Shown in pieces: positions 1,896 through 34,235 of a stretch of 64,000 bases of DNA (positions within the stretch are counted from its first letter, which is position 1; each line of letters begins with the position of its first letter). Source of the DNA: Flavobacterium sp. Lineage in GTDB: Bacteria > Bacteroidota > Bacteroidia > Flavobacteriales > Flavobacteriaceae. The position numbers and the translations under genes were made by a program. The stretch lies in the NCBI RefSeq assembly GCF_035299005.1, contig NZ_DATGXL010000005.1, forward strand, positions 5,756 to 69,755, read 5' to 3'. A model generated the notes under the pieces. That model ran no database searches and had not been told where the DNA came from. It saw only the letters and a program-made list of their open reading frames with translations.

Positions 1896-3305
1896 ATGAA
1901 AAAGATATTTTTATCAGTTATGATGCTTTCAGCTCTATTTAGTTGTAAGCAAGAACCTAAACAAGAAGACACAACAGCAGAAATTGCAGCATTTTCTCCT
2001 GAAGTAGAAGAAAACGGAGTAATATATGAAGCAAATATTCGTCAATATTCTCCTGAAGGAACTTTTAATGAATTCACTAAAGATATCCCAAAATTAAAAG
2101 AATTAGGAGTAAAAGTTATTTGGTTAATGCCTGTTTTTCCAATTTCTGAAACCAAAAGAAAAGCAACTGGTGGAGCGGATAGCAAATTTGCATCTGAAAT
2201 GCCAAAAGAAGAGCAAGCTAAATATCTAGGAAGCTATTATGCAGTAACCGATTTTAAAGCGATTAACCCAGAATTTGGTACCATTGAAGATTTTAGAAAA
2301 TTAGTAAAAACAGCACACGAAAATGGAATTTATGTAATTTTAGATTGGGTGCCAAATCATACGGGTTGGGATCATGTTTGGTTAAAAGAACATCCAGAAT
2401 TTTATACTAAAAATGAAAAAGGGGAAATTACACATCCGAAAGATACTGACTGGACTGATGTTGCAGATTTGAATTATGACAACAAAGAGCTTCATAAAGT
2501 GATGACGGCTGATATGATGCATTGGATTAAAAATGAAGGAGTTGATGGATTTCGTTGCGATGTAGCTGGTTCGGTTCCTGTAGAATTTTGGCAAAAAGCA
2601 ATTCCGGCGTTACGTAAAGAAAAAAATATTTTTATGTTAGCAGAAGCTTGGGAACCAGCTTTACTAAAAGATAATTTATTCGATATGGTTTATGGATGGG
2701 ATGCACATCATACATTCAATAAAATTGCGCAAGGGAAAGAAACTGTTGCTGCTTGGGATGCATATATTGAAAAACGCATGAAAGACTATGAAGCAAATGA
2801 TATTTTGATGAATTTTGTGGACAATCATGATGAAAATTCATGGAATGGAACTATTAAAAGTAGGTTAGGAGCAGCAGAAGAGGCAATGACGGCTCTGTCA
2901 TATGTTATGCCAGGTATGCCATTAATTTATAGCGGCAACGAGTATGGATTAGACCATAGTTTAAAATTCTTTGAAAAAGATTCAATTCCAAAAACAAAAG
3001 GTGCCGATTGGGAATTAAGATCAAAATTAGGAAAATTAAAAGCGGAGAACATAGCTTTAAATGGTGGAAAAAATAAAGCAACTTATAAGAGAATTAAAGC
3101 CTCTAATGAAAATGTTTTAGTATTTGAAAGAGAAAAAAACGGCAAAAAAGTAATTTATATGGCAAACTTTTCTGCAAAACCAGTTGATGTAACTATACCA
3201 TTAAAAGGTAAATTTAAAGATTATATGACTGGTAAAACTATGGAGTTAAATGAAAAACAAATTCATTCATTAACACCTTGGCAATATTATATTTTGACAG
3301 AATAG
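1896..3305 (+). CDS. GH13 alpha-amylase family lipoprotein
   Basis: Lipobox LFSC; DWVPNH, GFRCDVA, LAEAW, DNHDE catalytic motifs. Confidence 0.92.
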   Translation: MKKIFLSVMMLSALFSCKQEPKQEDTTAEIAAFSPEVEENGVIYEANIRQYSPEGTFNEFTKDIPKLKELGVKVIWLMPVFPISETKRKATGGADSKFASEMPKEEQAKYLGSYYAVTDFKAINPEFGTIEDFRKLVKTAHENGIYVILDWVPNHTGWDHVWLKEHPEFYTKNEKGEITHPKDTDWTDVADLNYDNKELHKVMTADMMHWIKNEGVDGFRCDVAGSVPVEFWQKAIPALRKEKNIFMLAEAWEPALLKDNLFDMVYGWDAHHTFNKIAQGKETVAAWDAYIEKRMKDYEANDILMNFVDNHDENSWNGTIKSRLGAAEEAMTALSYVMPGMPLIYSGNEYGLDHSLKFFEKDSIPKTKGADWELRSKLGKLKAENIALNGGKNKATYKRIKASNENVLVFEREKNGKKVIYMANFSAKPVDVTIPLKGKFKDYMTGKTMELNEKQIHSLTPWQYYILTE

Positions 3306-3326
3306 TCAAATAAAAAATAAAATTTT

Positions 3327-3356
3327 AAAGTCCTGTTGTTTTCGGCAGGACTTTTT
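3327..3356 (+). terminator. Intrinsic terminator after the GH13 genes
   Basis: aaagtcctgttg-tttt-cggcaggacttt followed by T residues. Confidence 0.8.
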
Positions 3357-3396
3357 ATTTAAAAATTATAACCGATATTTGTAAAAAACAAATCCT

Positions 3397-4605
3397 TTGA
3401 ATTCAAAATACGACATCATCATAATAGGCGGAGGTGCAGCCGGATTTTTCACAGCAATCAATATTGTTGAAAAAAATAGCAATCTAAAAGTAGCTATTCT
3501 TGAGAGGGGGAAAAACGTTTTAGAAAAAGTACGAATCTCGGGAGGTGGAAGATGTAATGTAACACACGCTTGTTTTGTTCCAAATGATTTAGTAAAATTT
3601 TATCCACGAGGAGAACGTGAACTAAAAGGGCCATTTCATCAGTTTTGTTCTGGTGATACTATTGAATGGTTTGAAAAACACGGTGTGGATCTTAAAATTG
3701 AAGAAGATGGAAGAATGTTTCCTGTTTCTAATTCATCACAAACTATTATTGATTGCTTTCTAGATGCTGTTAAAAAACTAAAAATAGATGTTTTAACGAA
3801 TCATAGTGTTCAGGAGCTTTATAAAACTGATGTGCACTGGAAAGTGACTACATTACAAGGAGTTTTTGCTTGTCAAAAAATTGTAATGGCTTCTGGTAGT
3901 AATCCAAAAATGTGGGAATTGCTTCAAAACTTAGGGCATAGAATTGTGGTACCTGTTCCGTCTTTATTTACTTTTAATATTAAAGATCCACGAATTAAAG
4001 ATTTGATGGGACTCTCAGCTTTTGCGACTGTAAAAGTTAAAAAATCAAAATTACAAGCCTCTGGCCCATTATTAATAACACATTGGGGTATGAGTGGCCC
4101 CGGAATTTTGAGGCTTTCAGCTTGGGGAGCAAGAGAATTAGCCGAAAAAAAGTATCAGTTTTCTATCCAAGTAAATTGGTTAAATGAGACCACTATTGAA
4201 GAAACAATAGATATGTTAAAAAAGATTAAAGAGCAAAATGCTAAAAAACTAGTTGCAAAATATGCGCATTTTGAATTACCAAAACGGCTATGGGAAAATC
4301 TTGTAAAAGCGTCTGGAATTGAAGAAGAAACCAAATGGGCAGATGTAAGCAAAAAGCAATTAAACGCTTTTGCAGAACAACTTATTAATGCAGAATTTCA
4401 TGTTAGCGGGAAAAGCACCTTTAAAGAAGAATTTGTAACCGCAGGTGGAATCGACTTAAAAGAAGTCAATTTCAAAACCATGGAAAGCAAAATTCTTCCA
4501 AATATTTATTTTGCAGGTGAGATACTAAATATTGACGCCATCACAGGTGGGTTCAATTTTCAAAACGCCTGGACAGGTGGATTTATAGTTGCAAATTCGA
4601 TTTAA
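3397..4605 (+). CDS. HI0933/BaiN(YhiN)-family NAD(P)/FAD-dependent oxidoreductase
   Basis: IIGGGAAG, KVRISGGGRCNVT, FVTAGG, YFAGE..D...TGGFNFQNAW motifs; TTG start. Confidence 0.9.
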   Translation: MNSKYDIIIIGGGAAGFFTAINIVEKNSNLKVAILERGKNVLEKVRISGGGRCNVTHACFVPNDLVKFYPRGERELKGPFHQFCSGDTIEWFEKHGVDLKIEEDGRMFPVSNSSQTIIDCFLDAVKKLKIDVLTNHSVQELYKTDVHWKVTTLQGVFACQKIVMASGSNPKMWELLQNLGHRIVVPVPSLFTFNIKDPRIKDLMGLSAFATVKVKKSKLQASGPLLITHWGMSGPGILRLSAWGARELAEKKYQFSIQVNWLNETTIEETIDMLKKIKEQNAKKLVAKYAHFELPKRLWENLVKASGIEEETKWADVSKKQLNAFAEQLINAEFHVSGKSTFKEEFVTAGGIDLKEVNFKTMESKILPNIYFAGEILNIDAITGGFNFQNAWTGGFIVANSI

Positions 4606-4606
4606 A

Positions 4607-5008
4607 TTAATAAGTTGAATCATCTGGTGCACTTCCAGTAGGAAGCGAAGATTTGCTTAAATCCGTTTCTTTTTTGGTTGTTAAAAACGTAAATTCTGTT
4701 ACTTGAATTTCTGTGGTATATTTTGTTGCGCCATCTTCAGCTTGCCATTGACGAGATTTGATTCGTCCTTCAATATAAATTTTATCACCTTTAGAAAGAT
4801 ATTTTTCACAAATTTCGGCAGCTTTATTACGAACTACAATGTTATGCCATTCGGTAGAAGTAATTTTTTCACCTGTTGTTTTATTTATGTACACTTCGTT
4901 AGTAGCTAAAGGAAATCTTCCTATACAATTACCTCCTTCAAAGTAATGCATTTTAATTTCATCTCCAAGATGTCCTATCAAAATGACTTTATTTAATGTT
5001 CCGTTCAT
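4607..5008 (-). CDS. ssb: Single-stranded DNA-binding protein
   Basis: LNKVILIGHLG, TEWHNIV, IYIEGRIKSRQW OB-fold motifs. C-terminal tip is atypical (DDSTY). Confidence 0.93.
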   Translation of the reverse strand: MNGTLNKVILIGHLGDEIKMHYFEGGNCIGRFPLATNEVYINKTTGEKITSTEWHNIVVRNKAAEICEKYLSKGDKIYIEGRIKSRQWQAEDGATKYTTEIQVTEFTFLTTKKETDLSKSSLPTGSAPDDSTY

Positions 5009-5046
5009 GGCTTGTATGTGTTTTTGGGTTATTCAAAAGTAATAAT

Positions 5047-6096
5047 TTATAATGAATTAAAACAATTTGAAAGCATAAAATTATGAATTACAATTGGAAA
5101 TGGCAATTTTTCAATTTCAGCAAGTGTTTTTGAATCAGGTAATTTTGCATTAAAATTTAATTGAAAAAAACTAATATGTAAATTTTGATGCGATAATTTA
5201 TGAAGAATAATCTTCTGATTTAAAATAAAAATCTCATTAGGTTTTTGATTAAAAAAAACCATAGAATTAAGTTGACTCATAAAATCATGTTCTGAAACTA
5301 ACTCTTCCGTTTCAATCATCGGGAATTCATATAGATTTTTCCAAATACCTTTGCCTTCTCGTTTTTGAACAATATAATTGGAATCATTGTCCTTTAAAAT
5401 CAAATAATTCAAATAACGATTAGTTACTTTTGTTTTTTTAGTCTTTACAGGTAATTCTAAAACTTTTTTATGTTGAAGCGCAGCACAACTTGAATTTAAA
5501 ACACAAGAATTACAATCTGGATTTTTTGGGACACATTGTAAGGCGCCAAATTCCATTATTGCCTGATTAAAAAGAGCTGGATTGTCTATAGGTAATACTT
5601 CTTGAGCGATATTCTGAAACTCTTTTTTGGTTTTACCAACTGAAATATCACTATCAATATTAAAATAACGACTCAATACTCTAAAAACATTTCCGTCTAA
5701 AACAGCAACGGGTTCGTTGTATGAAAAAGAAGCAATTGCTGCGGCGGTATATTCGCCAACACCTTTTAATTTTAATAAATTTTTATAATTTTCAGGAAAA
5801 ACACCATTTAATTCAATTGCAATAAATTTTGCAGTTGCATGTAAATTTCTTGCTCTGGAATAATATCCTAAACCTTGCCATAATTTCAATACTTGTTCTT
5901 CTTCAGCGTTTGCTAAATCAAAAATAGTAGGAAAAGCTTTTGTGAAAGCATTAAAATAAGGCAAACCTTGAGCAACACGCGTTTGTTGCAACATGATTTC
6001 TGACAACCAAATTAAGTATGGATTTGTGGTGTTTCGCCATGGTAAATCACGCTTATTTTGTAAATACCATTTAATTAAAGAGTTAGAAAATTGCAT
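5047..6096 (-). CDS. mutY: A/G-specific adenine glycosylase
   Basis: WLSEIMLQQT, WQGLGYYSRARNL, LKGVGEYTA, DGNVFRV and the CxPKNPxCxxCxLxxxC Fe-S motif. Confidence 0.95.
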   Translation of the reverse strand: MQFSNSLIKWYLQNKRDLPWRNTTNPYLIWLSEIMLQQTRVAQGLPYFNAFTKAFPTIFDLANAEEEQVLKLWQGLGYYSRARNLHATAKFIAIELNGVFPENYKNLLKLKGVGEYTAAAIASFSYNEPVAVLDGNVFRVLSRYFNIDSDISVGKTKKEFQNIAQEVLPIDNPALFNQAIMEFGALQCVPKNPDCNSCVLNSSCAALQHKKVLELPVKTKKTKVTNRYLNYLILKDNDSNYIVQKREGKGIWKNLYEFPMIETEELVSEHDFMSQLNSMVFFNQKPNEIFILNQKIILHKLSHQNLHISFFQLNFNAKLPDSKTLAEIEKLPFPIVIHNFMLSNCFNSL

Positions 6097-21070: not shown

Positions 21071-22321
21071 TTATAGTTTAAAGGCAGTTTTTACTTTGTC
21101 TACAAAATCTAATTTTTCCCATGTGAACAATTCAACTGTTAATGTTTTTGTCTCGCCTCCAGGAGCAGAAAATGTTTTTGTTACTGTCTCAGGGGTTCTT
21201 CCCATGTGTCCGTAAGCAGCCGTTTCGCTGTAAATCGGATTTCTTAATTTTAAACGTTGTTCAATAAAGTACGGACGCATATCAAAAATGCTTTCTACTA
21301 CTTTACTGATTTCACCATCTGTTAAGTTCACTTTTGCAGTTCCATAAGTATTTACGTTGATTGATGTTGGTTCAGCAACACCAATTGCATAAGATACTTG
21401 TACTAAAATTTCATCAGCAACACCAGCTGCAACTAAATTTTTAGCAATATGACGTGTAGCATAAGCAGCAGAACGGTCTACTTTAGATGGGTCTTTTCCT
21501 GAGAATGCACCACCACCGTGAGCACCTTTTCCACCGTAAGTATCTACGATAATTTTTCTTCCTGTTAAACCAGTATCTCCGTGAGGTCCTCCAATTACGA
21601 ATTTTCCTGTTGGGTTAATGTGGTATTTAATCGCATCATTAAATAAATGAGCGTATTGAGGATTTTTAGCAATCACTCTTGGAATCAAAATTTCTATAAT
21701 ATCTTTTTTGATTTTCGCTAACATTGTTGGTTCGTCAGCAAAGTCATCATGTTGTGTAGAAACTACAATGGCATCAATACGAACTGGTTTGTTGTCATCG
21801 GAATATTCTAAAGTAACCTGAGATTTTGCATCCGGACGTAAGTAAGTGATTTCTTTGTTCTCTCTTCTTAAATCAGCTAAATCTTGTAATAACTGATGAG
21901 ATAATTTTAAAGCTAACGGCATGAACTCAGCAGTTTCATTTGTGGCATAACCAAACATCATCCCTTGGTCACCAGCACCTTGTTCTTCTTTGCTTGCTCT
22001 GTCAACTCCTTGATTAATATCTGCAGATTGCTCATGAATTGCAGATAAAACTCCACAAGAATTTGCTTCAAACATGTATTCGCTTTTCGTGTAACCAATT
22101 TTCTTGATTACATCTCTTGCGATAGTTTGTACATCTAAATAAGTGTTTGATTTTACTTCTCCAGCTAAAATTACCTGACCTGTAGTAACTAATGTTTCAC
22201 AAGCTACTTTTGACTCAGGGTCAAATGCTAAAAAGTTATCAATTAATGCATCTGAAATTTGATCCGCAACTTTGTCAGGATGCCCTTCACTCACTGATTC
22301 TGACGTAAATAAATAAGCCAT
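21071..22321 (-). CDS. metK: S-adenosylmethionine synthetase
   Basis: [51 protein letters not shown]. Confidence 0.97.
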
Positions 22322-22387
22322 AATTAAATTTTATTATAAATTAAGTGAGAAAAAATATGATTGCAAATAGCGTAAAGGAGTAGGGAA

Positions 22388-22440
22388 TACTGCTTTAGCA
22401 TTTTTTTAATGAGGTCGCAATCAGTTCAAATTTTTCCTCT
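22388..22440 (-). promoter_or_regulatory. SAM-II riboswitch aptamer upstream of metK
   Basis: Minus-strand GAGG-aaaaa-UUUGA-ACUG-AUUGC-GA-CCUC-linker-GCUAAAG-CAGU: P1 GAGG/CCUC, P2 ACUG/CAGU and AUUGC/GCUAA, matching the SAM-II pseudoknot. Confidence 0.8.
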
Positions 22441-22453
22441 TTGTTTTAGGGTG

Positions 22454-22606: not shown

Positions 22607-23494
22607 ATGGTTAAAAAACTACTTTCTTTTAGCTTTTTGTTAGTATCGCTAACATTTCAAGCGCAAAATTTAATTAGCGAAGGTTTTGATACTTATGCTA
22701 ATTTAGCGACTTCTGGTTGGACATCAACTAATCAAAGTACTGTTATTGGAACTAACCCAGATTGGTTTCAAGGGAATCCTGTAGCTAGTGGAGGCCCTTT
22801 TGACTCCTATGTTGGGGCTACTAATTCTTATGTTGCATGTAATTATAATAGTACTGCTGGAGCCAATACGATTAGTAATTGGTTAATGACTCCTGTGGTT
22901 AGTCTTGTTAATGGAGATGTTATCACTTTTTATACAAGAACTGTCACTTCACCTGCATATGCAGATAGGTTACAATTAAGAATTAGTACTAATGGAGCGG
23001 CTTCAGCTAACCCAGTTGGTGCAACAGGAGTTGGTGATTATACCACTTTAGCTTTAGATGTAAATCCATCACTAGTTGCTTCAAGTTATCCTAATGCATG
23101 GACTCTGTATAGTTATACGGTTTCTGGTTTGCCAACAGCTACTAATTGTAAAATTGCATTTAGATATTTTGTTACAAATGGAGGTCCTTCTGGAGCTAAT
23201 TCAGATTATATTGGAGTTGATTCATTTTCTGTAGATAGACCGTTAAGCTCTGATTCGTTTTTTAAAAATAATTTTTCACTATATCCTAATCCTGTTAATA
23301 ATGTGCTAAATATTTCTATAAAAAATGAATTGTCCATTACTAAATTGACAATTACTGATATAAATGGAAGAATCGTGATTTCAGAATCTTCAGTAATTAA
23401 TTCTTTAAATGTTTCAGATTTATCATCGGGTATATATTTAGTATCTATTGAAACGAATGAAGGAAAAGGGACTGCTAAATTTGTAAAAAATTAA
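22607..23494 (+). CDS. T9SS type-A cargo protein with choice-of-anchor J (cleaved-adhesin-like) domain
   Basis: Signal peptide; TISNWLMTP, ADRLQLRIST, YIGVDSF; CTD FSLYPNPV...GIYLVSI...KFVKN. Confidence 0.85.
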   Translation: MVKKLLSFSFLLVSLTFQAQNLISEGFDTYANLATSGWTSTNQSTVIGTNPDWFQGNPVASGGPFDSYVGATNSYVACNYNSTAGANTISNWLMTPVVSLVNGDVITFYTRTVTSPAYADRLQLRISTNGAASANPVGATGVGDYTTLALDVNPSLVASSYPNAWTLYSYTVSGLPTATNCKIAFRYFVTNGGPSGANSDYIGVDSFSVDRPLSSDSFFKNNFSLYPNPVNNVLNISIKNELSITKLTITDINGRIVISESSVINSLNVSDLSSGIYLVSIETNEGKGTAKFVKN

Positions 23495-23514
23495 AAGATA
23501 TTTTACGTAATTTA

Positions 23515-23549
23515 AAAGAAAAAAGAGGCTTTTGCTTCTTTTTTCTTTT
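23515..23549 (+). terminator. Intrinsic terminator
   Basis: aaagaaaaaagaggc-tttt-gcttcttttttcttt. Confidence 0.75.
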
Positions 23550-23668
23550 ATAATAGATTTTATTTTTGTTATTTATTGTTTTATATGAATAAAAATCTAT
23601 AAAATTGTTTTAAAATAACAAAATTTAGAAAAATAATCTATTTATTTTTTTATTTTAGAAAATAAATC

Positions 23669-23676
23669 TAATTTTG
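23669..23676 (+). promoter_or_regulatory. -7 promoter element for the metY leader
   Basis: TAATTTTG 25 nt upstream of the leader ATG. Confidence 0.65.
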
Positions 23677-23701
23677 CTCCATCAAATTAAAAGAAATAAA
23701 A

Positions 23702-23776
23702 ATGAACTTTACAATTTGCTATATCTGTATGACAATGTGGAATAATCCGCAGAGGTATTGTATTGCATATTTTTAA
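23702..23776 (+). CDS. Cys/Met-rich attenuator leader peptide (24 aa)
   Basis: MNFTICYICMTMWNNPQRYCIAYF; contains gcagaggt, complementary to the downstream terminator stem. Confidence 0.75.
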   Translation: MNFTICYICMTMWNNPQRYCIAYF

Positions 23777-23797
23777 AGAAACTTAAATAATCAATAT

Positions 23798-23826
23798 AAC
23801 CTCTGTCTAAAGCAGAGGTTTTTTAT
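23798..23826 (+). terminator. Attenuator terminator of the metY operon leader
   Basis: aacctctg-tctaaag-cagaggtt followed by T4. Confidence 0.85.
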
Positions 23827-23844
23827 TTCTAATAACACAACAGT

Positions 23845-23895
23845 ATGAAAATAGCAATTTACAATCCAAGACGATGTTGTCGAATGTGTAGCTGA
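23845..23895 (+). CDS. Second Cys-rich uORF (16 aa)
   Basis: MKIAIYNPRRCCRMCS, between the attenuator and metY. Confidence 0.5.
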   Translation: MKIAIYNPRRCCRMCS

Positions 23896-23958
23896 ATCAA
23901 ACTCAGTAAAATCAAAAAAATACATTTAAAAACACAATAACATCAAAAATAAAATATC

Positions 23959-25251
23959 ATGAGCACAAATAAATTTGCAACAAACGCATTACACGCAGGA
24001 CACGACATAACTAAAAATGGAGGAACAAGAGCCGTTCCAATTTACCAAACTACTTCCTACGTGTTCAATAACTCAGACCACGCTGCCAATCTTTTTGGTT
24101 TAGCCGAAGCTGGTTTTATTTATACAAGATTAAATAATCCAACAAACGATATCTTAGAAAAACGTTTAGCTAAATTAGAAGGCGGAATCGGAGCTGTCGT
24201 AACCGCTTCAGGAACTGCTGCTATTTCAACTGCTTTATTAACATTATTAAAAGCGGGCGACCATATAGTAGCTTCTAACAGTTTATATGGCGGAACATAT
24301 AATTTATTAAATGTGACTTTGCCAAGATTAGGCATCACCACAACATTTGTTGATCCATCAAATCCAGAAAATTTCTTAAATGCAGCTCAAGAAAATACCA
24401 GAGTGTTCTTCGCCGAAAGTTTAGGAAATCCAAAATTAGATGTACTCGATTTAAAAGCCATTTCAAAAGCCGCACAAACCTACAAAGTGCCTTTTATTGT
24501 GGATAACACAGTGGCAACACCCTTTTTGCTAAACCCAATCGAACACGGAGCTAACATCGTCATTCATTCATTAACGAAATACATCGGTGGAAACGGAACT
24601 TCGCTTGGAGGTGTTATCATTGATGCAGGAAATTTTGACTGGAGCAACGGAAAATTCCCAGAATTCACAGAACCTTCTGCAGGTTATCACGGATTGAAAT
24701 ATTATGAAGTATTAGGTGCAGCTTCGTTCATAGCAAAAGTTAGAATCGAAGGTTTACGCGATTTAGGTGCTGCTTTGAGTCCATTTAATGCATTTCAAAT
24801 TATTCAAGGATTAGAAACATTGGCTATCCGAATCAAAAAGCATAGTGAAAATGCTTTGGAATTAGCGAAATGGTTGCAAAAACGTTCAGAAGTGGCTTGG
24901 GTAAATTATCCAGGATTAATTTCTTCAAAATATTATGATTTAGCCCAACAATATTTACCAGAAGGACAAAGTGGTATCGTAACTTTTGGATTAAAAGGCG
25001 GTTATGAAGCCGCTAAAAAAGTAGCTGATGAGACTCAATTTTTCTCATTATTAGCGAATATTGGTGATACAAAATCATTAATCATTCATCCTGCAAGTAC
25101 TACGCACCAACAATTGTCAGAAGAACAACAAATTACAACTGGAGTAACGAAAGATTTAATACGTTTATCAGTTGGATTAGAAGATATTGAAGACTTGAAA
25201 ACCGATTTACAAAGTGTTTTCGAAAAATTGCCAGTTCAAAATTTAGTTTAG
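23959..25251 (+). CDS. metY: O-acetylhomoserine aminocarboxypropyltransferase/cysteine synthase (OAH/OAS sulfhydrylase)
   Basis: IYTRLNNPT, HSLTKYIGG PLP lysine, LANIGDTKSLIIHPASTTHQQL, IRLSVGLE. Confidence 0.92.
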   Translation: MSTNKFATNALHAGHDITKNGGTRAVPIYQTTSYVFNNSDHAANLFGLAEAGFIYTRLNNPTNDILEKRLAKLEGGIGAVVTASGTAAISTALLTLLKAGDHIVASNSLYGGTYNLLNVTLPRLGITTTFVDPSNPENFLNAAQENTRVFFAESLGNPKLDVLDLKAISKAAQTYKVPFIVDNTVATPFLLNPIEHGANIVIHSLTKYIGGNGTSLGGVIIDAGNFDWSNGKFPEFTEPSAGYHGLKYYEVLGAASFIAKVRIEGLRDLGAALSPFNAFQIIQGLETLAIRIKKHSENALELAKWLQKRSEVAWVNYPGLISSKYYDLAQQYLPEGQSGIVTFGLKGGYEAAKKVADETQFFSLLANIGDTKSLIIHPASTTHQQLSEEQQITTGVTKDLIRLSVGLEDIEDLKTDLQSVFEKLPVQNLV

Positions 25252-25266
25252 GTTTTTGTTTGTTTC

Positions 25267-25311
25267 AAAGACTGCCAATAGTTCGCACCTAAAGGCAGTC
25301 TTTGTTTTTTT
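25267..25311 (+). terminator. Intra-operon hairpin between metY and metX
   Basis: aaagactgcc-N17-ggcagtcttt followed by gT7. Confidence 0.6.
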
Positions 25312-25319
25312 AAAGAAAA

Positions 25320-26285
25320 ATGTGTAAGATTCAAAAGTTCGTATTTAATACTGTTCCATTGCAAAATGGAGTAGTACAATCAAAAGTGATTTTGTCCTAT
25401 CAATTGTTTGGTCAATCTATTGGTTCGGCTCCTTTGGTAGTGGTGAATCATGCTTTGACAGGAAATTCGCAAGTTATTGGTGAAAACGGTTGGTGGCAAT
25501 CCTTAATTGGTGATGATAAAATTATCGATACCAAAAAATATGCAGTTTTAGCTTTCAATATTCCCGGAAACGGCTATCAAGACAAAGAAAATTTGATTGA
25601 AAATTATCAAGATTTTACAAACCACGATATTGCTAATTTATTCTGGAAAGGAATTGATTCGTTTAAAGTGAATCAAGTTTTTGTAGTCATTGGCGGAAGT
25701 TTAGGCGGTGCAATTGCATGGGAAATGGCAGGAATTCGACCAAAAGCGATTTCAAATTTAATTCCAGTAGCAACAAATTGGAAAGCTTCTGATTGGTTGA
25801 TTGGAAATGTGTTAATTCAAGATTTGATTCTGAATAATTCCAAAAATCCAATTTACGATGCTCGAATTCACGCTATGTTATTGTATCGAACATCTGAATC
25901 ATTACAAGAAAAATTTAACACCAAATTGCAAAATTCAGAAGGATTGTTTCAAGTAGAAAGTTGGTTGTTGCATCACGGAGAAAAATTGCAAAATCGATTT
26001 CAACTTTCGGCCTACAAACTCATGAATCATTTATTGAAAACTACGGATATTTTTAAAAGCAACAATAAATCAGATGTCATCAAAAGTATCTCGTCAAATA
26101 TTCATCTAATAAGTGTGGACACAGATTACTTTTTTACGGCAAACGAAATCAAAACGGCTTTTCAAGAAGTCAAGAATTACAAAAACAACGCATTTTATCA
26201 CGAAATCAAATCCATTCACGGACACGATGCTTTCTTGATAGAATTTGAACAATTAAACAACATACTAAAACCTATATTTAATTAA
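25320..26285 (+). CDS. metX: Homoserine O-acetyltransferase family (alpha/beta hydrolase)
   Basis: NHALTGNS, GGSLGG nucleophile elbow, SIHGHDAFLIE. Confidence 0.85.
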   Translation: MCKIQKFVFNTVPLQNGVVQSKVILSYQLFGQSIGSAPLVVVNHALTGNSQVIGENGWWQSLIGDDKIIDTKKYAVLAFNIPGNGYQDKENLIENYQDFTNHDIANLFWKGIDSFKVNQVFVVIGGSLGGAIAWEMAGIRPKAISNLIPVATNWKASDWLIGNVLIQDLILNNSKNPIYDARIHAMLLYRTSESLQEKFNTKLQNSEGLFQVESWLLHHGEKLQNRFQLSAYKLMNHLLKTTDIFKSNNKSDVIKSISSNIHLISVDTDYFFTANEIKTAFQEVKNYKNNAFYHEIKSIHGHDAFLIEFEQLNNILKPIFN

Positions 26286-26375
26286 GATGAAATCGCTCAC
26301 AGAACTTTTTGCGAAAGCAAAATCCAATAAAAAAGCGATACCATTTTTTACCACTGAAAAATAAAATCTAAAAAA

Positions 26376-28790
26376 ATGAAAATATTAAAATTTGGAGGAA
26401 AATCATTAGCAAACGGAGAAGGATTGCAAAAAGTAATTCAAACGATTGCTCAAAAATATTTCAATAGCGAACCCATTGCAGTCGTAGTTTCGGCAAGAGG
26501 AAATGCTACAGACGAATTGGTAATTTTACTAAAAAAAGCGCAAGCCAACATCAGTTTTCAAGCAGATTTTGAGCAATTCAAAAAATACCAATTGGAAGGC
26601 TTGAAAGAAAACATATTTGAAGAAGAATTCTCAGTTTTACAAAAGTTATTAGAGGGTGTTTCGCTTTTAGGAGATTACAGCGAAAAAATCAAAGATCAAG
26701 TCATTGCGTATGGCGAAATTCTATCCGCAAAATATGTAGCTTATGTGTTGAATGAGAACAGCATTAAAGCACAATTTTCAGATGCGCGACAATTGATAAA
26801 AACGGATATAAATTTTGGAAATGCACAACCAATTGACGCTGTTTCAAAGCGAAATGTCTTGGATTATTTCGAAAAAAACACAGATAAAGTCAACATTGTA
26901 ACTGGTTTTATAGGTTCAACGTTACACAACGAAACCACTACTTTAGGAAGAAATGGTAGTAATTACACCGCTTCATTATTAGCGAATTACTTAAACGCTG
27001 AAGAATTTCAAAATTTCACACACGTTGACGGAATTTTCACCGCCAACCCAGATTTAGTTGCTGATGCAAAAAAAATCGAGCGATTATCGTTTAACGAAGC
27101 GAATGAGTTAGCAAATTTTGGAGCACAAATTTTACATGCCAAAACCATCATTCCTTTGGTGGAAAAAAACATTCCGTTGCGCATTTTAAACACCTTCAAT
27201 CCAGAAAGTGAAGGAACTTTAATCACTTCCGAACAAACCAATGAAGGGATCAAATCGCTTTCGGTTTTAACCAATGTGTCGTTGATTAATTTAGAAGGAA
27301 GAGGTTTATTAGGAAAAACTGGTGTAGATGCGCGAATTTTTCGAGTAATGGCTGAAAACGATATTAGTGTTAGCATCATTTCACAAGGTTCTTCGGAAAG
27401 AGGAATTGGTTTGGTAGTGAGTTCTGATAAGGCTTCCAAAGCATTAGTTGGTTTGGAAAAAGAATTTGAAACCGATTTTTATACGAAAGATGTCAATAAG
27501 ATTTCGGTAAACGATAATATTGCTGTGATTTCGATTATTGGGCAAGATTTAACCAATTTTCATAAACCATACACGGCTTTAATCCGAAATAAAATCACAC
27601 CAATTTTGTTGAATAATACAGTTACGGGAAGAAATATCAGTTTGGTGATCAGTCAAGATGAATTCAAACGCGCTTTAAATGTGATTCACGGCGAAATTTT
27701 TGGAGTAGCGAAAAAAATCAACATCGCTATTTTCGGTCACGGTACGGTTGGTGGAACTTTGATTTCCCAAATTTTAGAATCCGCAAAAAACATTGAAAAG
27801 CGAAAAGGAATCAAGCTGAATGTATTTGCGATTGCGAATTCAAAGAAAGTATTGTTGAATAAATTCGGAATTAGCGAAAATTGGAAAGCAACTTTAGAAG
27901 ATAAAGGGCAAGATTATAAAGTGGAAGATATTATTGGGTACGCGAAAGAACATCATTTGGAAAATTTAATCGCGATTGACAACACCGCCAGTTCGACTTT
28001 TATTGAAAATTATATTTCGCTTGCTGAAAATAGTTTCGATTTGATTTCGTCAAATAAAGTCGCCAATACAGTAAGTTATGATTTCTATAAAAAGCTGCGA
28101 AAAGTCTTAAAAGATAACCAAAAAGAATATCTATACGAAACCAATGTTGGTGCAGGTTTGCCTCTAATTGATACGATAAAATTACTGCATTTGTCAGGTG
28201 AAAACATCACCAAAATTAAAGGTGTTTTCTCTGGGACATTAAGTTATTTGTTCAATAATTTTTCAGTTGAAAACAAAAAATTCAGCGAAGTATTGCAAGA
28301 AGCCATCGATAAAGGTTTCACCGAACCCGACCCAAGAGAAGATTTAAACGGAAACGACGTTGGACGAAAATTATTAATCCTAGCTCGCGAATTAGATTTA
28401 CAAAACGAATTTGAAGAAATCCAAATTCAAAATTTAATTCCAGAGGCTTTACGTGAAGGAAGCGCAACGGATTTCTTAAAACGCTTATCAGAATTAGACG
28501 GAATTTATCAAAACATCAAAGACGCTCAAGGTCCAAATGAAGTGTTGCGTTACATTGGAGAATTATCAGGCGATTTGCAACAAGACAAAGGAAAATTGGA
28601 AGTAAAATTAATCTCAGTTTCAGCCAATTCTGCTTTAGGTTCGTTAAAAGGTTCGGATTCTATTTTCGAAATTTATACTGAATCTTATGGAGAACAACCA
28701 ATCGTAATTCAAGGCGCAGGAGCTGGAGCATCCGTAACTGCAAGAGGCGTTTTTGGCGATATTTTACGTTTATCTGAAAAAAAATTATAA
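26376..28790 (+). CDS. thrA: Bifunctional aspartate kinase/homoserine dehydrogenase
   Basis: KFGGKS, TTLGRNGSNYTA, ACT domains, GHGTVGG, YLYETNVGAGLP, TEPDPREDL, GAGAGASVTA. Confidence 0.92.
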   Translation: MKILKFGGKSLANGEGLQKVIQTIAQKYFNSEPIAVVVSARGNATDELVILLKKAQANISFQADFEQFKKYQLEGLKENIFEEEFSVLQKLLEGVSLLGDYSEKIKDQVIAYGEILSAKYVAYVLNENSIKAQFSDARQLIKTDINFGNAQPIDAVSKRNVLDYFEKNTDKVNIVTGFIGSTLHNETTTLGRNGSNYTASLLANYLNAEEFQNFTHVDGIFTANPDLVADAKKIERLSFNEANELANFGAQILHAKTIIPLVEKNIPLRILNTFNPESEGTLITSEQTNEGIKSLSVLTNVSLINLEGRGLLGKTGVDARIFRVMAENDISVSIISQGSSERGIGLVVSSDKASKALVGLEKEFETDFYTKDVNKISVNDNIAVISIIGQDLTNFHKPYTALIRNKITPILLNNTVTGRNISLVISQDEFKRALNVIHGEIFGVAKKINIAIFGHGTVGGTLISQILESAKNIEKRKGIKLNVFAIANSKKVLLNKFGISENWKATLEDKGQDYKVEDIIGYAKEHHLENLIAIDNTASSTFIENYISLAENSFDLISSNKVANTVSYDFYKKLRKVLKDNQKEYLYETNVGAGLPLIDTIKLLHLSGENITKIKGVFSGTLSYLFNNFSVENKKFSEVLQEAIDKGFTEPDPREDLNGNDVGRKLLILARELDLQNEFEEIQIQNLIPEALREGSATDFLKRLSELDGIYQNIKDAQGPNEVLRYIGELSGDLQQDKGKLEVKLISVSANSALGSLKGSDSIFEIYTESYGEQPIVIQGAGAGASVTARGVFGDILRLSEKKL

Positions 28791-28803
28791 CCACCCAAAC
28801 TCC

Positions 28804-28837
28804 AAAACCTGCAAAATGTAAAAGTCTTGTGGGTTTT
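28804..28837. repeat. Imperfect REP-like palindrome
   Basis: aaaacctgcaa...ttgtgggtttt arms pairing with G-U wobbles. Confidence 0.4.
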
Positions 28838-28882
28838 ACACTTTAACAGTTCAACGACTAAACAATTCAACAAACAAAAACC

Positions 28883-30055
28883 ATGAGTAACCAAAATTTA
28901 GGATTAGAAACCCAAGCCATCAGAACGCAATTAGAACGTACGCAATATTTAGAACATTCCGTTCCGTTATATCTAACTTCCAGTTTTATTTTTGAAGATG
29001 CGGAAGACATGCGTGCTTCTTTTGCAGAAGAAAAAGAACGCAATATTTATAGCCGATTTTCCAATCCCAATACATCTGAATTTGTTGAGAAAATTTGTTT
29101 GATGGAAGGAGCAGAAGACGGCTACGCTTTCGCAACCGGAATGGCAGCGGTGTATTCTACTTTTGCTGCTTTATTGAATTCGGGCGATCATATTGTTTCG
29201 GCGAGTAGTGTTTTTGGTTCGACACATACTTTGTTCACCAAATATTTTCCGAAATGGAACATCACCACTTCGTATTTCGATGTCAACAAACCAGAAACAA
29301 TTGAAAATTTCATTCAACCAAATACAAAAATACTTTACGCGGAATCACCAACCAATCCAGCAGTTGATATTCTAGATTTAGAATTGTTGGGTAAAATTGC
29401 CAAAAAACACAATCTGATTTTAATCATCGATAACTGTTTTGCGACTCCTTACATTCAAAATCCAATTCAATTTGGAGCCGATTTAGTGATTCATTCTGCA
29501 ACCAAATTAATCGATGGTCAAGGTCGTGTTTTAGGTGGAGTAACCGTTGGGCGTTCTGATTTAATTCGTGAAATTTATTTGTTTTCTCGCAATACCGGAC
29601 CTGCTTTGTCGCCTTTTAATGCTTGGGTGTTGTCAAAAAGTTTAGAAACGTTGCCAGTTCGTATCGAAAAACATTCCGAAAACGCTTTAAAAGTTGCCGA
29701 ATTTTTAGAAAACCATCCGAATGTTGCTTCCGTAAAATATCCATTTCTAAAATCGCATCCACAGTATGAAGTCGCTAAAAAGCAAATGAAATTAGGCGGA
29801 AATATTGTAGCGTTTGAAATTAAAGGAGGAATTGAATCAGGAAGAAAGTTTTTAGATAAAATCAAATTATGTTCCTTATCTGCGAATTTAGGTGACACAC
29901 GTTCGATTGTTACACACCCAGCTTCCACAACTCATAGTAAATTGACTGAAGAAGAACGTTTAGCAGTAAGCATTACAGATGGTTTAGTTCGCGTTTCGGT
30001 TGGTTTAGAAACGGTTCAAGATGTAATCAATGACTTAAAGCAAGCGTTAGAATAA
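28883..30055 (+). CDS. Trans-sulfuration PLP enzyme (MetZ/MetB-type sulfhydrylase or cystathionine gamma-synthase)
   Basis: IYSRFSNP, FATGMAA, HSATKLIDGQGR, ANLGDTRSIVTHPASTTH. Confidence 0.88.
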   Translation: MSNQNLGLETQAIRTQLERTQYLEHSVPLYLTSSFIFEDAEDMRASFAEEKERNIYSRFSNPNTSEFVEKICLMEGAEDGYAFATGMAAVYSTFAALLNSGDHIVSASSVFGSTHTLFTKYFPKWNITTSYFDVNKPETIENFIQPNTKILYAESPTNPAVDILDLELLGKIAKKHNLILIIDNCFATPYIQNPIQFGADLVIHSATKLIDGQGRVLGGVTVGRSDLIREIYLFSRNTGPALSPFNAWVLSKSLETLPVRIEKHSENALKVAEFLENHPNVASVKYPFLKSHPQYEVAKKQMKLGGNIVAFEIKGGIESGRKFLDKIKLCSLSANLGDTRSIVTHPASTTHSKLTEEERLAVSITDGLVRVSVGLETVQDVINDLKQALE

Positions 30056-30186: not shown

Positions 30187-30209
30187 CAGAGTTCATAAAC
30201 ATACTGTTT

Positions 30210-30311
30210 GTTATCACGAAAGCTGGAGGGAATAGACCCTGCGAAAGCTTAGCAACCCTACACTTGTAGAAGGTGCTACATTCTATTTCGATTTTATCGG
30301 AAGCAGATAAC
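30210..30311 (+). promoter_or_regulatory. SAM-I riboswitch
   Basis: P1 gttatc/gataac; GGAGGGA..gaccc..GAAAG P2; AGCAACC...AAGGTGCT P3; P4 ttcgat/atcgga. Confidence 0.92.
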
Positions 30312-30409
30312 CTAAGGAAATTTTTTTCCAATTTCTTGATAACATATTAATAATATAAACTTTGTGAAACTCTGTGAAAACTTAGCGTAACTCTGTGTAA
30401 CAAAAAAAT

Positions 30410-31402
30410 ATGTCAAAAATTCAAGAAGAAATCAAAAAACGAATTCTCGTGCTTGACGGAGCTATGGGAACGATGTTACAACGTTATAAATTTGAAGAAG
30501 AAGATTTCAGAGGCGAGCGCTTCAAAGATTTTCCGCATCCATTAAAAGGAAACAACGATTTGCTTTCCATTACCCAACCAGAAGCTGTAAAATCAGTTCA
30601 TCGTGCTTATTTTGAAGCAGGTGCTGATATTGTAGAAACGAATACTTTTTCGGGAACTACTATTGGAATGGCGGATTATTATTTGGAAGATTTAGTCTAC
30701 GAACTGAATTTTCAATCCGCAAAAATCGCTCGTGAAGTAGCAGACGAATTTACTGATAAGCTAAGATTTGTAGCTGGTTCTATAGGTCCAACCAACAGAA
30801 CAGCATCAATGTCACCAGATGTAAACGACCCAGGATTTCGTGCGGTGAATTTTGATGATTTAAAAATCGCTTACAAACAGCAAGTAGAAGCTTTAATAGA
30901 TGGTGGTTGCGATTTACTTTTGGTAGAAACTATTTTCGATACGTTAAATGCAAAAGCCGCTTTGTTTGCAATTGAAGAAGTGAAAGATGAGCGAACCATT
31001 GATATTCCTATAATGGTTTCCGGAACTATTACGGATGCTTCGGGAAGAACATTATCGGGACAAACGGTTGAAGCTTTTTTAATTTCGATTTCACATATTC
31101 CATTGTTGAGTGTTGGGTTTAATTGCGCTTTAGGAGCTGATCAATTGAAACCATATTTGAAACGTTTAGGAAATAATACCTCATTAAATATTTCGGCACA
31201 TCCCAATGCAGGTTTGCCAAATGCTTTCGGGCAATACGACCAAACGCCTGAGGAAATGCAACAATTAATTCGTGAATATTTACAGGAAAATTTAGTAAAT
31301 ATTATCGGCGGATGTTGCGGAACAACCCCAGATCACATCAAATTAATAGCTGAGGTAGCAAAAGAATTCAAACCTAGAACGCAACAATTGAAATCCGTTT
31401 AA
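30410..31402 (+). CDS. Methionine synthase homocysteine-binding module (split MetH, N-terminal part)
   Basis: [26 protein letters not shown] zinc ligands. Confidence 0.93.
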
Positions 31403-31432: not shown

Positions 31433-31573
31433 ATGAAAAACAGAACAATAAAAATACAATTCGAATCATTTTTAAATTCACAACGATGTTGGGTTTGCCA
31501 ATATGTTAGTGATAGTAAAACCTTTTGGAAGGATGTTGCAAAACACTATAAAAGAATAAGTAATGAGTTATAA
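31433..31573 (+). CDS. Small CxxC peptide between the MetH halves (46 aa; not in the ORF track)
   Basis: [46 protein letters not shown]; overlaps the metH start by 11 nt. Confidence 0.4.
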
Positions 31574-34235
31574 TTCCGATAAATATTTAAAATTATCAGG
31601 TTTAGAACCTTTGATTGTAACTCCAGAAACCAATTTTGTAAACGTTGGAGAACGAACAAACGTAACTGGTTCTAGAAAATTTCTTCGATTGATTAAAGAA
31701 GAAAAGTACGATGAAGCGCTTTCGGTTGCACGCGAACAAGTAGAAGGTGGCGCGCAAATCATCGATGTCAACATGGATGAAGGAATGTTAGATGGTGTTT
31801 ATGCAATGACAAAATTCCTAAATCTAATTGCTGCCGAACCCGATATTGCTCGAGTTCCTGTTATGATTGATTCTTCAAAATGGGAAATTATTGAAGCGGG
31901 TTTGAAAGTCATTCAAGGAAAAGGCGTGGTGAATTCGATTTCTCTAAAAGAAGGAGAAGCTACTTTTATTCATCATGCTAAATTAATCAAACGATACGGA
32001 GCAGCTGTAATTGTTATGGCTTTTGATGAAAAGGGTCAGGCTGACACATACGAAAGACGTATTGAAATTTGTAAAAGAAGTTACGATATTCTGGTGAACC
32101 AAGTAGGTTTTCCAGCAGAAGACATCATTTTTGATCCCAATATTTTTCCAGTTGCAACTGGAATGGAAGAACACAAACTAAATGCTTTAGATTTCTTCCG
32201 AGCAACCAAATGGATTCGCGAAAATCTTCCGTATGCAAATATTTCTGGAGGTGTGAGTAATGTGTCCTTTTCTTTCCGTGGAAATGATAAAGTACGTGAG
32301 GCGATGCATTCTGCCTTTTTGTATCATGCCATTCAAAACGGAATGACAATGGGAATTGTAAATCCAGAAATGTTAGAGATTTATGATGAAATCGATAAAA
32401 ATCTTTTAGAACATGTTGAAGATGTTTTATTAAACAGAAGAGAAGATGCTACAGAACGTTTGCTAGATTTAGCCGAAAGTTTCAAAGGTGATGTAAAATC
32501 AAATGAAAAAGCTATTGCCGAATGGAGAAATGGTTCGGTTCAAGAACGATTAACGCATTCATTAGTGAAAGGAATTGACGAATTTATCGAAATTGATGTG
32601 GAGGAAGCACGCCAGTTGGTTGAAAAACCTATAGAAGTTATCGAAAATCATCTTATGAACGGAATGAATGTGGTTGGTGATTTATTCGGAAGAGGAAAAA
32701 TGTTCTTGCCACAAGTAGTAAAATCAGCTCGTGTAATGAAAAAAGCGGTGGCTTATTTACTTCCTTATATTGAAGCTTCAAAAGATGGAAAATCTTCTTC
32801 GGCTGGAAAAGTATTGATGGCAACTGTAAAAGGCGATGTACATGATATTGGTAAAAATATTGTTTCAGTAGTTTTAGCCTGTAATAATTTCGAAATTATT
32901 GATTTAGGTGTGATGGTTCCGCCAGAAAAAATTATTGAAGTTGCGGTTAAAGAAAATGTAGATATTATTGGTTTGAGCGGTTTGATTACACCTTCGTTGG
33001 ACGAAATGGTGTATTTGGCCAAAGAAATGGATAAGTTGAACATCAAAATTCCAGTTATGATTGGCGGTGCGACAACTTCCCGTGCGCATACGGCTGTGAA
33101 AATTGCGCCAGAATATAAAGAAACTGTGGTTCATGTGAATGATGCTTCTCGTGCGGTAACGGTTGCAACCAATTTATTGCAACCAGAGACTAAAATTACT
33201 TATGCTAAATCACTTCGTGAAGAATATGATACGCTTAGAGAAGGGTATTTGAATAGAAGTCGTGAGAAAAATTTCTTATCGATTGAAGAAGCGCGTAAAA
33301 ATAAATTCAAAATCGATTGGAATACGTTCGAACCGGTAAAACCAAATTTCATAGGAACCAAAACCATTGAAGTTGAACTATCGGAATTAGTAAATTTCAT
33401 CGATTGGACCCCATTTTTTCAGTCTTGGGAATTGTATGGAAAATTTCCAGCGATTTTAGCTGATGAAATTGTAGGTGAACAAGCGACGAATTTGTTTGAA
33501 GATGCACAAAAAATGCTTGCTCAAATTGTTTCGGAAAAATGGTTTTCTGCCAAAGGAATTTTAGGAATTTTTCCAGCCAATACAATAAATGATGATGATG
33601 TTGAGGTTGTCACTTCAAACGAAGTTGAGAAATTTTTGACGCTTCGTCAACAATCACAAAAAACTGCTGGAGCTCCAAATATTGCTTTAGCCGATTTTAT
33701 AACCCCAAAAGAAATTGGGAAACGAGATTATATAGGATGTTTCTGTGTGTCAACCGGTTTTGGAGTGGATGAGAAAGCTTCGGAATTTGAAAAACAATTA
33801 GACGATTATAATTCGATTTTGGTAAAAGCTTTGGGAGATAGATTAGCAGAAGCTTTTGCGGAATATTTGCATTTAAAAGTTCGTAAGGAAATATGGGGTT
33901 ATGCTTCTGATGAGGTATTGTCTAACGAGGAATTAATCAAAGAAGAATACAAAGGAATTCGTCCTGCTCCAGGTTATCCTGCTTGTCCTGACCATTTAGA
34001 AAAACCAACGATTTGGAAATTATTAAAGGTAGAGCAAGAAATAGGAGTAAAGTTAACTGAAAGCATGGCGATGTGGCCAGCGTCATCGGTTTCAGGTTAT
34101 TATTTTGCGAATCCAGAAAGTAAATATTTTGGTTTAGGAAAAATTAAAAAAGACCAATTAGAAGATTACGCCAAAAGAAGAAATATTAGTATTGAACAAG
34201 CCGAAAAATGGCTCTCACCCAATTTAGCAGATTAA
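31563..34235 (+). CDS. metH: B12-dependent methionine synthase (pterin-binding, cobalamin-binding and reactivation domains)
   Basis: [52 protein letters not shown]. Confidence 0.95.

Follow-up and report, generated by a model that had tools for sequence, protein, structure and literature searches.

The leader of metY in a 64,000-nucleotide (nt) stretch of Flavobacterium sp. DNA (contig NZ_DATGXL010000005.1; this whole stretch is referred to as the window) is probably a classical ribosome-mediated transcription attenuator of the leader-peptide kind, in which the sensing codons would be those of methionine (Met, AUG) and cysteine (Cys, UGY). The leader combines a short upstream open reading frame (uORF1) that has a plausible start and is enriched in pathway codons, an intrinsic terminator (helix 3:4), a mutually exclusive antiterminator (helix 2:3) and a further hairpin (1:2) whose 5' arm would lie in the footprint of a stalled ribosome. 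A preliminary description of this DNA, made from the letters alone, had proposed ribosome-stalling attenuation, and our analysis supports that proposal, since the features of trp- and his-type attenuators are present at the sequence level and their geometry is conserved. From these features we infer that uORF1 is translated, that ribosomes stall on it and that read-through responds to Met and Cys.

A wider proposal, which we judge about evenly poised, is that this would be the first described attenuator to sense through runs of AUG plus Cys codons, and that it would belong to a genus-wide, ribosome-read Met/Cys regulon built on two tandem attenuators and also controlling metX-metH and a TonB-dependent receptor gene. 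If this were true, the receptor would be a candidate for the uptake of a nutrient that contains methionine or sulfur.

Architecture of the metY leader

The leader occupies the 464-nt intergenic gap between the gene of a surface protein sorted by the type IX secretion system (22607-23494) and metY (23959), and its elements are listed in Table 1. On re-checking the sequence, every coordinate assigned to these elements in the preliminary description was correct, as were the residues listed for the uORF1 peptide; however, Cys20, which had been listed with the other Cys and Met residues, is not usable as a sensing codon because it lies downstream of segment 2. All of the elements described at that time were recovered, while a second Met/Cys uORF (uORF2) had been overlooked. 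The ATG of uORF1 lies 25 nt after the -7 box and its stop codon falls in the apical part of the 2:3 antiterminator. With five Met or Cys residues in 23 codons, the peptide is enriched relative to the amino-acid frequencies of the window (P = 3.6e-4), and the corresponding value for the related locus L001 is P = 1e-6. The window holds one copy of this element (attenuator 1).

The DNA of the terminator (AACCTCTGT-ctaaa-GCAGAGGTT, then the T-run TTTTATTT) encodes a 9-bp stem, and it is one of three terminator-like sites in the 700 nt scanned, for which shuffled sequences give 0.2. The whole leader folds as 1:2 plus 3:4 (z = -4.6 versus shuffles), and an RNA ending before segment 4 folds into 2:3, extended by the inner helix UGUAUUG/CAAUAUA, so the three pairings proposed previously are all present by sequence and by folding. 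The segment energies in the window are -6.2 (1:2), -17.3 (2:3) and -12.1 (3:4) kcal/mol. Equilibrium folding with a masked ribosome footprint was dropped in favor of the segment energies, given that its outcome was dominated by an artefact in which the U-tail paired with the A-rich 5' end. A close relative present in runs X6 and X7 carries a G at 23716, which restores Met5, one of the residues replaced in the window.

Conservation of the leader peptide as codons and as RNA

The comparison set comprised 80 Flavobacterium-type metY loci, in which upstream terminators and Met/Cys-rich short ORFs were catalogued. The attenuator-1 leader was found in 60 sequences, window included, which constitute alignment A1. 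Such an alignment of metY upstream regions had been suggested as a check of the original proposal, and it revealed conserved Met and Cys codons together with compensating changes in the 2:3 and 3:4 stems. uORF1 is conserved in the 59 leaders besides the window with the typical pattern MxFTxCNMC[CRM]MMW..., for instance as MNFTMCNMCMMMWNNPQRKPIA or MKFTICHMCRMMWKSPQRTLMA, followed by ACCTCTGC...GCAGAGGT and the terminator. In these 59 sequences Met accounts for 18% of the residues and Cys for 10.4%, compared to 2.0% and 0.73%, respectively, in the window's 39 long ORFs, that is, a 9-fold enrichment of Met codons and a 14-fold enrichment of Cys codons. Moreover, conservation proceeds codon by codon: ATG is found 215 times in the frame of uORF1 and just 4 and 1 times in the alternative frames, the third base of the Cys codons wobbles (TGT 85, TGC 43) while the amino acid is kept, length changes within the Met/Cys run come in 3-nt blocks, and the start codon is conserved, with one GTG among the 60 leaders.

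This codon-wise pattern, which includes the length of the ORF, bears directly on whether the terminator and antiterminator might be the expression platform of a metabolite riboswitch, recognizing S-adenosylmethionine (SAM), S-adenosylhomocysteine, Met or a sulfur compound, with the uORF being incidental. The idea is a natural one, considering that SAM riboswitches control the neighboring metK and metH genes in the same cluster and that the met operons of many bacteria are under riboswitch control. Nevertheless, a search of the leader (23480-24000) against Rfam returned no family at its gathering threshold and no relevant one even at E values up to 10, and nothing was found upstream of metY in 20 related loci, although the same scans detected SAM-I and SAM-II at neighboring genes. 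Besides, the stretch preceding segment 2 amounts to only about 45 nt, in which the 1:2 hairpin is the sole conserved helix, and altogether we regard a riboswitch as very improbable. The best Rfam match to the leader, OmrA-B, was rejected, as it scored 30 bits against a threshold of 40 bits and reflects only the terminator and the string CAGAGGUAUUG.

Other parts of the leader are conserved as RNA rather than as peptide. The invariant GCAGAGG is read as Pro-Gln-Arg (PQR) in about half of the species and as Ser-Ala-Glu (SAE) in the others, and therefore segment 2 is conserved as RNA. In most sequences of both frame types a TAA stop lies 15-19 nt after the start of segment 2, and two mutually cancelling 1-nt indels flank GCAGAGG, which keeps the TAA within the apical portion of this helix; such constancy would be predicted if the place where the ribosome terminates were under selection. 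In 55/59 sequences the distance from the start of the last Met/Cys codon (usually codon 12) to segment 2 is 14-15 nt, and segment 1 begins inside this codon or immediately after it. Taking the size of the ribosome footprint from general knowledge, a ribosome stalled at this codon would cover segment 1 and stop just short of segment 2.

The same observations can be set against the possibility that uORF1 and uORF2 encode functional Met/Cys-rich peptides, such as metal-binding peptides or precursors of modified peptides, instead of sensors. Both ORFs are conserved and peptides rich in Cys and Met can bind metals, but the C-terminal half is read in the two frames mentioned above, the N-terminal residues outside the Met/Cys run are variable, and residue 13 toggles between Trp, Ser and Pro in step with the RNA pairing, the change from Trp to Ser or Pro being a U to C change at a G-U position of the 1:2 stem that preserves the pair. 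In addition, each ORF ends in an antiterminator and is then followed by a terminator, and the NCBIfam gene identities at the locus include no modification or export genes next to the leader uORFs. A role for the peptides themselves thus appears scarcely credible.

The start region of uORF1 also shows regular features. In 60/60 leaders the ATG is preceded by a TTTG motif whose end lies 17-28 nt before it (27 of them with the full TAnnTTTG), the position of the -7 box predicts a 5' untranslated region (5' UTR) of approximately 12-18 nt, and the 13 nt before the ATG consist of 55-92% A, as expected of a phylum that does not rely on Shine-Dalgarno pairing. One group of species, to which the window belongs (23629-23670), keeps the promoter repeats AAAAATAATCTA ... 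TAGAAAATAAATCTA, and another group has a canonical TTTGG(N19-21)TTTG promoter in their place. An operator role for these repeats is possible and would be in keeping with how strongly the leader RNA is regulated in F. psychrophilum, as described below.

Conservation and covariation of the alternative helices

The helices proposed for the window are maintained across alignment A1. In the 3:4 terminator 99.5% of the cells are paired and 4/7 pairs change on both sides, while in the 2:3 antiterminator these values are 89.5% and 5/11 pairs, as exemplified by the replacement of the inner AUUG/CAAU by AUGG/CCAU; controls in which either helix was slid gave 34-55% paired. Some loci have altered the three copies of the shared motif together, namely L044 (GCAAAGG/CCTTTGC/GCAAAGG) and both L062 and L078, which switched to GGGAG/CCTCCC/GGGAGG. 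RNAalifold, without any supplied structure, recovered the terminator from the full alignment and, once the alignment was cut before segment 4, GCAGAG:CUCUGC. The two frame types are not aligned correctly by MAFFT in the 1:2 region of A1, where the same program found nothing for this reason, and hence this hairpin was folded sequence by sequence; every one of the 38 distinct variants forms it, at -1.4 to -6.5 kcal/mol, and it has been rebuilt with other bases in L058 (UGUAAA/UUUAUG), L062 (CAGG/CCUG) and L078 (GCAGGA/UCUUGU).

The mean energies over 59 sequences are -5.6 (1:2), -14.4 (2:3) and -13.1 (3:4) kcal/mol. On average, the off state (1:2 plus 3:4) is more stable than 2:3 by 4.3 kcal/mol, and without 1:2 the helix 2:3 is more stable than 3:4. 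The 2:3 helix can also form ahead of 3:4 during transcription.

Proposed mechanism and evidence from transcripts

Transcription would start a few bases past the -7 box, and a ribosome would load on the A-rich 5' end and translate uORF1 as RNA polymerase moves ahead. When Met-tRNA and Cys-tRNA are ample, the ribosome would pass segment 2 and reach the stop codon inside the antiterminator, where it would block 2:3 and allow 3:4 to form, ending transcription at approximately 23821-23828. If no ribosome were present, 1:2 would hold segment 2 and the terminator would form as well, so the default state would be off. When charged tRNA-Met or tRNA-Cys is scarce, the ribosome would stall on codons 9-12, with a footprint that would cover segment 1 and end short of segment 2, the two segments starting 1 nt and 14 nt, respectively, after the first base of Met12; the freed segment 2 would then pair with segment 3, pre-empting the terminator and permitting transcription of metY, metX, the gene of a bifunctional aspartokinase/homoserine dehydrogenase (AK/HSDH) and metZ.

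Several observations weigh against this scheme. The uORF1 of the window is weak, with two internal Met and two usefully placed Cys codons compared to five Met and two Cys in relatives whose MetY is 99% identical. It is also degenerate in comparison with relatives at 97-99% MetY identity (23714-23737), since it has Ile, Ile and Thr in place of Met5, Met8 and Met11, and its usual TAA has been lost (23766-23776), which displaces the stop by 6 nt and makes the ORF two codons longer. The orthologue in F. psychrophilum has lost most of its Met codons (MKITICNICRMASEN...) and kept the helices. Additionally, Met starvation depletes the initiator Met-tRNA too, and a failure of initiation would lead to termination, so the working range may be narrow. 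The leaders are closely related, and as a consequence the independent compensating events are few and the shuffle statistics inflated; the case for the helices rests on the agreement of several lines of evidence. Finally, the leader RNA of F. psychrophilum rises and falls with the operon and does so more strongly, and control at the promoter could explain the regulation in that species without attenuation.

The transcript data behind this last point come from the F. psychrophilum transcriptome of Guerin et al. 2021 (PMC9723704), in which a 100-nt 'independent' transcribed region named Rfp20 is located upstream of the metY operon. Its sequence is exactly that of the orthologous leader, from the -7 box to the antiterminator (cf. 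L016), and its boundaries are described by the authors as unresolved (PMC9723704). On agar with 1/2 and 1/5 nutrients and in fish plasma, the log2 changes were +3.5, +5.1 and -4.1 for Rfp20, +2.4, +3.0 and -2.2 for metY, and +1.9, +3.3 and -2.7 for metX (PMC9723704). These arrays demonstrate transcription of the leader and a nutrient response of the locus in F. psychrophilum; as Rfp20 itself changes, the promoter is regulated too and the arrays do not isolate attenuation. Two 'RNA-Seq' runs containing the sequence of the window assemble into 43-kb contigs and are effectively metagenomic, with no transcript ends visible, while F. psychrophilum RNA contigs, at a depth of 3-10, are too thin to show attenuation, one of them spanning terminator 2 into metY.

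These results are relevant to a further explanation, in which the element is a real attenuator made up of uORF and terminator, or else a short RNA (Rfp20), but with an output that depends on general translation or coupling, on the promoter or on the terminated RNA acting in trans, and not specifically on the charging of Met- and Cys-tRNA. It would agree with the strong regulation of the leader RNA in F. psychrophilum (-4.1 to +5.1 log2, parallel to the operon), with the loss of several Met codons but not of the helices in that species and in the window, and with the overlap of the repeated motifs with the promoter; moreover, a terminated leader RNA of another bacterium, rnTrpL, is reported to act in trans (bioRxiv 10.1101/606483). 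However, without codon-specific sensing it would be difficult to account for a 9- to 22-fold enrichment of exactly the two sulfur amino acids, seen in two independent uORFs and approximately 130 sequences. The distance between the last Met codon and segment 2 is constant at 14-15 nt, and all of the downstream contexts are related to methionine. We therefore consider non-specific control unlikely, and attenuation through Met and Cys codons is retained as the preferred reading.

A putative second attenuator in most species

A second uORF with its own terminator is found 3' of terminator 1 in 71/80 loci. Terminator 2 has the form (A/G)(G/T)CC(C/T)TTTGG...CCAAAAGG plus a T-run, and the peptides, such as MKTIAKRNMMCCEMMQMCIPICCCQK and MNVIAKNMMTCMMMHMMMHMMMCCIGICYYQKRKT, are richer in sensing residues than uORF1 (Met 21%, Cys 16%). 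When the RNA is cut before the 3' arm of the terminator, CCAAAAG, which sits at the end of the second uORF or just past it, pairs with CUUUUGG in eight divergent lineages, and the full RNA folds into terminator 2 instead. Judging from these sequence features, most Flavobacterium species carry two putative Met/Cys attenuators in series. In L060, the region between attenuator 2 and metY contains an unannotated 58-codon ORF with no Pfam match (2713-2889) and a tandem repeat of a 12-nt unit (CAATAACAATAT; 2890-2965).

The uORF2 of the window is a short version of this second leader peptide, and the clade of the window (window, L001-L007 and F. haoranii L045) has only this short form, with no terminator. 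Its core GAGACGATGTTGTCGAATGTGT, with two CGA Arg codons, is invariant in the nine loci of the clade, while the flanks vary. The 63 nt that follow (23896-23958) contain 10 C and 1 G, and such a C-rich, G-poor composition would suit a Rho loading site. A pairing of the Cys/Met codons of uORF2 with the region just upstream of the metY start was considered and rejected, as the downstream partner is not conserved in the clade.

Genes of the locus and other genomic contexts

The preliminary description had named the downstream genes metY, metX, thrA and metZ, and the NCBIfam matches confirmed metY, metX, an AK/HSDH gene and a metZ-like gene (Table 1). No terminator-like site was found on the + strand from metY through to the SAM-I element, which makes a four-gene transcript plausible, and we infer that metY, metX, the AK/HSDH gene and the metZ-like gene are co-transcribed. 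The MetY of the window shares 99% identity with its counterparts in F. cheniae DSM 22462 and strain BAL38; the matches listed by the MetY homology search were all at least 98% identical and are uninformative on distribution beyond the genus. The 13-kb methionine cluster contains three RNA sensors, namely SAM-II (metK), the Met/Cys leader (metY) and SAM-I (metH). Flavo-1 RNA motifs (Rfam RF01705) adjoin the SAM-I riboswitch in two related clusters (L038, 5637-5720, minus strand; L058, 4415-4505, plus strand).

Table 1. Elements of the metY leader and surrounding genes, with positions in the window.
Feature	Position	Strand	Description
Promoter region	23629..23676	+	-7 box preceded by repeated motifs AATAATCTA and TAGAAAATAAATCTA; predicted start site
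Bacteroidetes-type -7 box	23669-23676	+	TAATTTTG, fits TAnnTTTG
uORF1	23702..23776	+	24 codons, peptide MNFTICYICMTMWNNPQRYCIAYF; ATG 23702, stop 23774-23776
Likely sensing codons of uORF1	Cys9 23726-28, Met10 23729-31, Met12 23735-37	+	
Cys6 of uORF1	23717-19	+	Farther upstream than the other sensing codons
1:2 hairpin	23736..23751	+	UGUGGA/UCCGCA; anti-antiterminator, possibly a pause hairpin
Segment 1; partner	23736-23741; 23746-23751	+	TGTGGA; TCCGCA; complementary
Segment 2; segment 3	23749-23756; 23799-23806	+	GCAGAGGT; ACCTCTGT; complementary
2:3 antiterminator	23749..23806	+	GCAGAGGU (23749-56) with ACCUCUGU (23799-806)
Inner helix of 2:3	23759-65; 23792-98	+	UGUAUUG with CAAUAUA, by folding
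3:4 intrinsic terminator	23798..23828	+	AACCUCUGU-cuaaa-GCAGAGGUU then UUUUAUUU
uORF2	23845-23895	+	16 codons, MKIAIYNPRRCCRMCS; short counterpart of the second leader peptide, no terminator after it
Putatively controlled genes, metY to metZ-like, together	23959..30055	+	
metY	23959-25251	+	O-acetylhomoserine/O-acetylserine sulfhydrylase; NCBIfam match
metX	25320-26285	+	NCBIfam match
AK/HSDH gene	26376-28790	+	Bifunctional aspartokinase/homoserine dehydrogenase; NCBIfam match
metZ-like	28883-30055	+	O-succinylhomoserine sulfhydrylase; NCBIfam match
SAM-I riboswitch	30208-30313	+	Ahead of split metH; Rfam
metH, split	30410-31402 and 31563-34235		NCBIfam match
metK	21071-22321	minus	NCBIfam match
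SAM-II riboswitch	22385-22445	minus	Ahead of metK; Rfam

Scanning of metagenome contigs with the exact pattern returned 120 stretches, of which 23 were true attenuator-1 copies; approximately 80% of the matches were due to chance in GC-rich coding DNA and were removed by requiring a terminator. Most of the true copies (17/23) precede metY. In L100, the attenuator lies near the minus-strand end and directly precedes metX (4401-5408) and metH (2071-4150) with no metY, which indicates that the element is modular. In L138, L144, L194 and L198, attenuator 1 precedes the gene of a 948-residue TonB-dependent receptor with Plug and barrel domains, followed by metY in L144 and L198, where the contig is long enough, and in L060, a locus of the F. 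johnsoniae type, a receptor gene (374-2374) ends just upstream of attenuator 2. The receptor gene of L144 (1911-4757, minus strand) is directly behind attenuator 1, and such arrangements belong to F. johnsoniae-like genomes. Judged by these gene orders, the attenuator behaves as a portable module tied to methionine-related genes and the receptor appears to be part of the Met/Cys-controlled set; it may import a sulfur-containing nutrient.

Novelty and comparison with known systems

Leader-peptide attenuation has been documented for Trp, His, Leu, Phe, Thr and Ile/Val and, in a different form, for Cys in Actinobacteria. For methionine genes, the control usually described is by repressors, SAM riboswitches or T-boxes. 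The preliminary description was not aware of any characterization of this element in Flavobacteria, and this still holds: there is no Rfam match, no paper was found and the F. psychrophilum orthologue is listed only as Rfp20. Full-text literature searches retrieved no Met or Met/Cys leader peptide in Bacteroidota, although they do not fully exclude a prior description. As far as searched, then, the mechanism is known and the Met/Cys specificity is new.

A leader based on Met codons is conceptually odd, because the amino acid that is sensed is also needed to start translating the sensor, and its genus-wide and often duplicated conservation suggests that the design is workable and would offer a clean system for studying the trade-off between initiation and sensing. 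The element would also account for Rfp20, an orphan transcript published for the fish pathogen F. psychrophilum, and the three RNA sensors of the cluster would separate the sensing of SAM from that of charged tRNA. Besides, it would provide a regulatory handle on the function of an uncharacterized TonB-dependent receptor and a new family for annotation in Bacteroidota genomes, where the uORFs are at present unannotated.

The leader peptides already known in Bacteroidetes include those of F. psychrophilum ilvE (Ile-rich) and hisG (His-rich) and aromatic-rich ones, the metY leader not being described among them (PMC9723704). Together with the Bacteroid-trp leader of Rfam, they share with the metY leader the phylum, the class of mechanism and the arrangement of an A-rich start, a uORF and a terminator, and they differ in amino-acid specificity. 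Cys-responsive leader ORFs have been reported in Actinobacteria (Seliverstov et al. 2005, PMC1262725; Canestrari et al. 2020, bioRxiv 10.1101/834739), which resemble the metY leader in having Cys codons in a short upstream ORF, ribosome stalling and control of sulfur-amino-acid genes. These are leaderless and Cys-only, act on translation through an unmasked ribosome-binding site or possibly Rho, and no conserved terminator hairpin was found in them, whereas Met codons predominate in the metY leader, which has a predicted 5' UTR and a complete set of terminator and antiterminator; consequently, it does not group with the mycobacterial polycysteine leaderless short ORFs, which are leaderless, Cys-only and without a terminator.

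The SAM-I and SAM-II riboswitches and the Met-specific T-boxes of Firmicutes are likewise cis-acting RNAs that control methionine genes, often by premature termination. However, the riboswitches sense SAM directly and the T-boxes bind uncharged tRNA, whereas the metY leader would read charged tRNA-Met and tRNA-Cys by way of the ribosome, and it matches no SAM-I, SAM-II or T-box covariance model of Rfam.

The closest parallels in design are the leader-peptide attenuators of enterobacteria (trp, his, leu, pheA, thr and ilvGMEDA), which include precedents for sensing more than one amino acid, as in thr (Thr and Ile) and ilv (Leu, Val and Ile). In common with them, the metY leader has a short leader ORF rich in codons for the products of the pathway, exclusive 1:2, 2:3 and 3:4 pairings, an intrinsic terminator before the first structural gene, and a stop codon placed so that a finishing ribosome would block the antiterminator. 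Sequence homology is absent (17 bits for Phe_leader, with a threshold of 55 bits), and the differences extend to the biology of the element: its sensing codons would be AUG and UGY, its host phylum uses no Shine-Dalgarno sequences, the amino acid that serves as the signal is also needed for initiation, AUG being the start codon, and in most species the element occurs in tandem.

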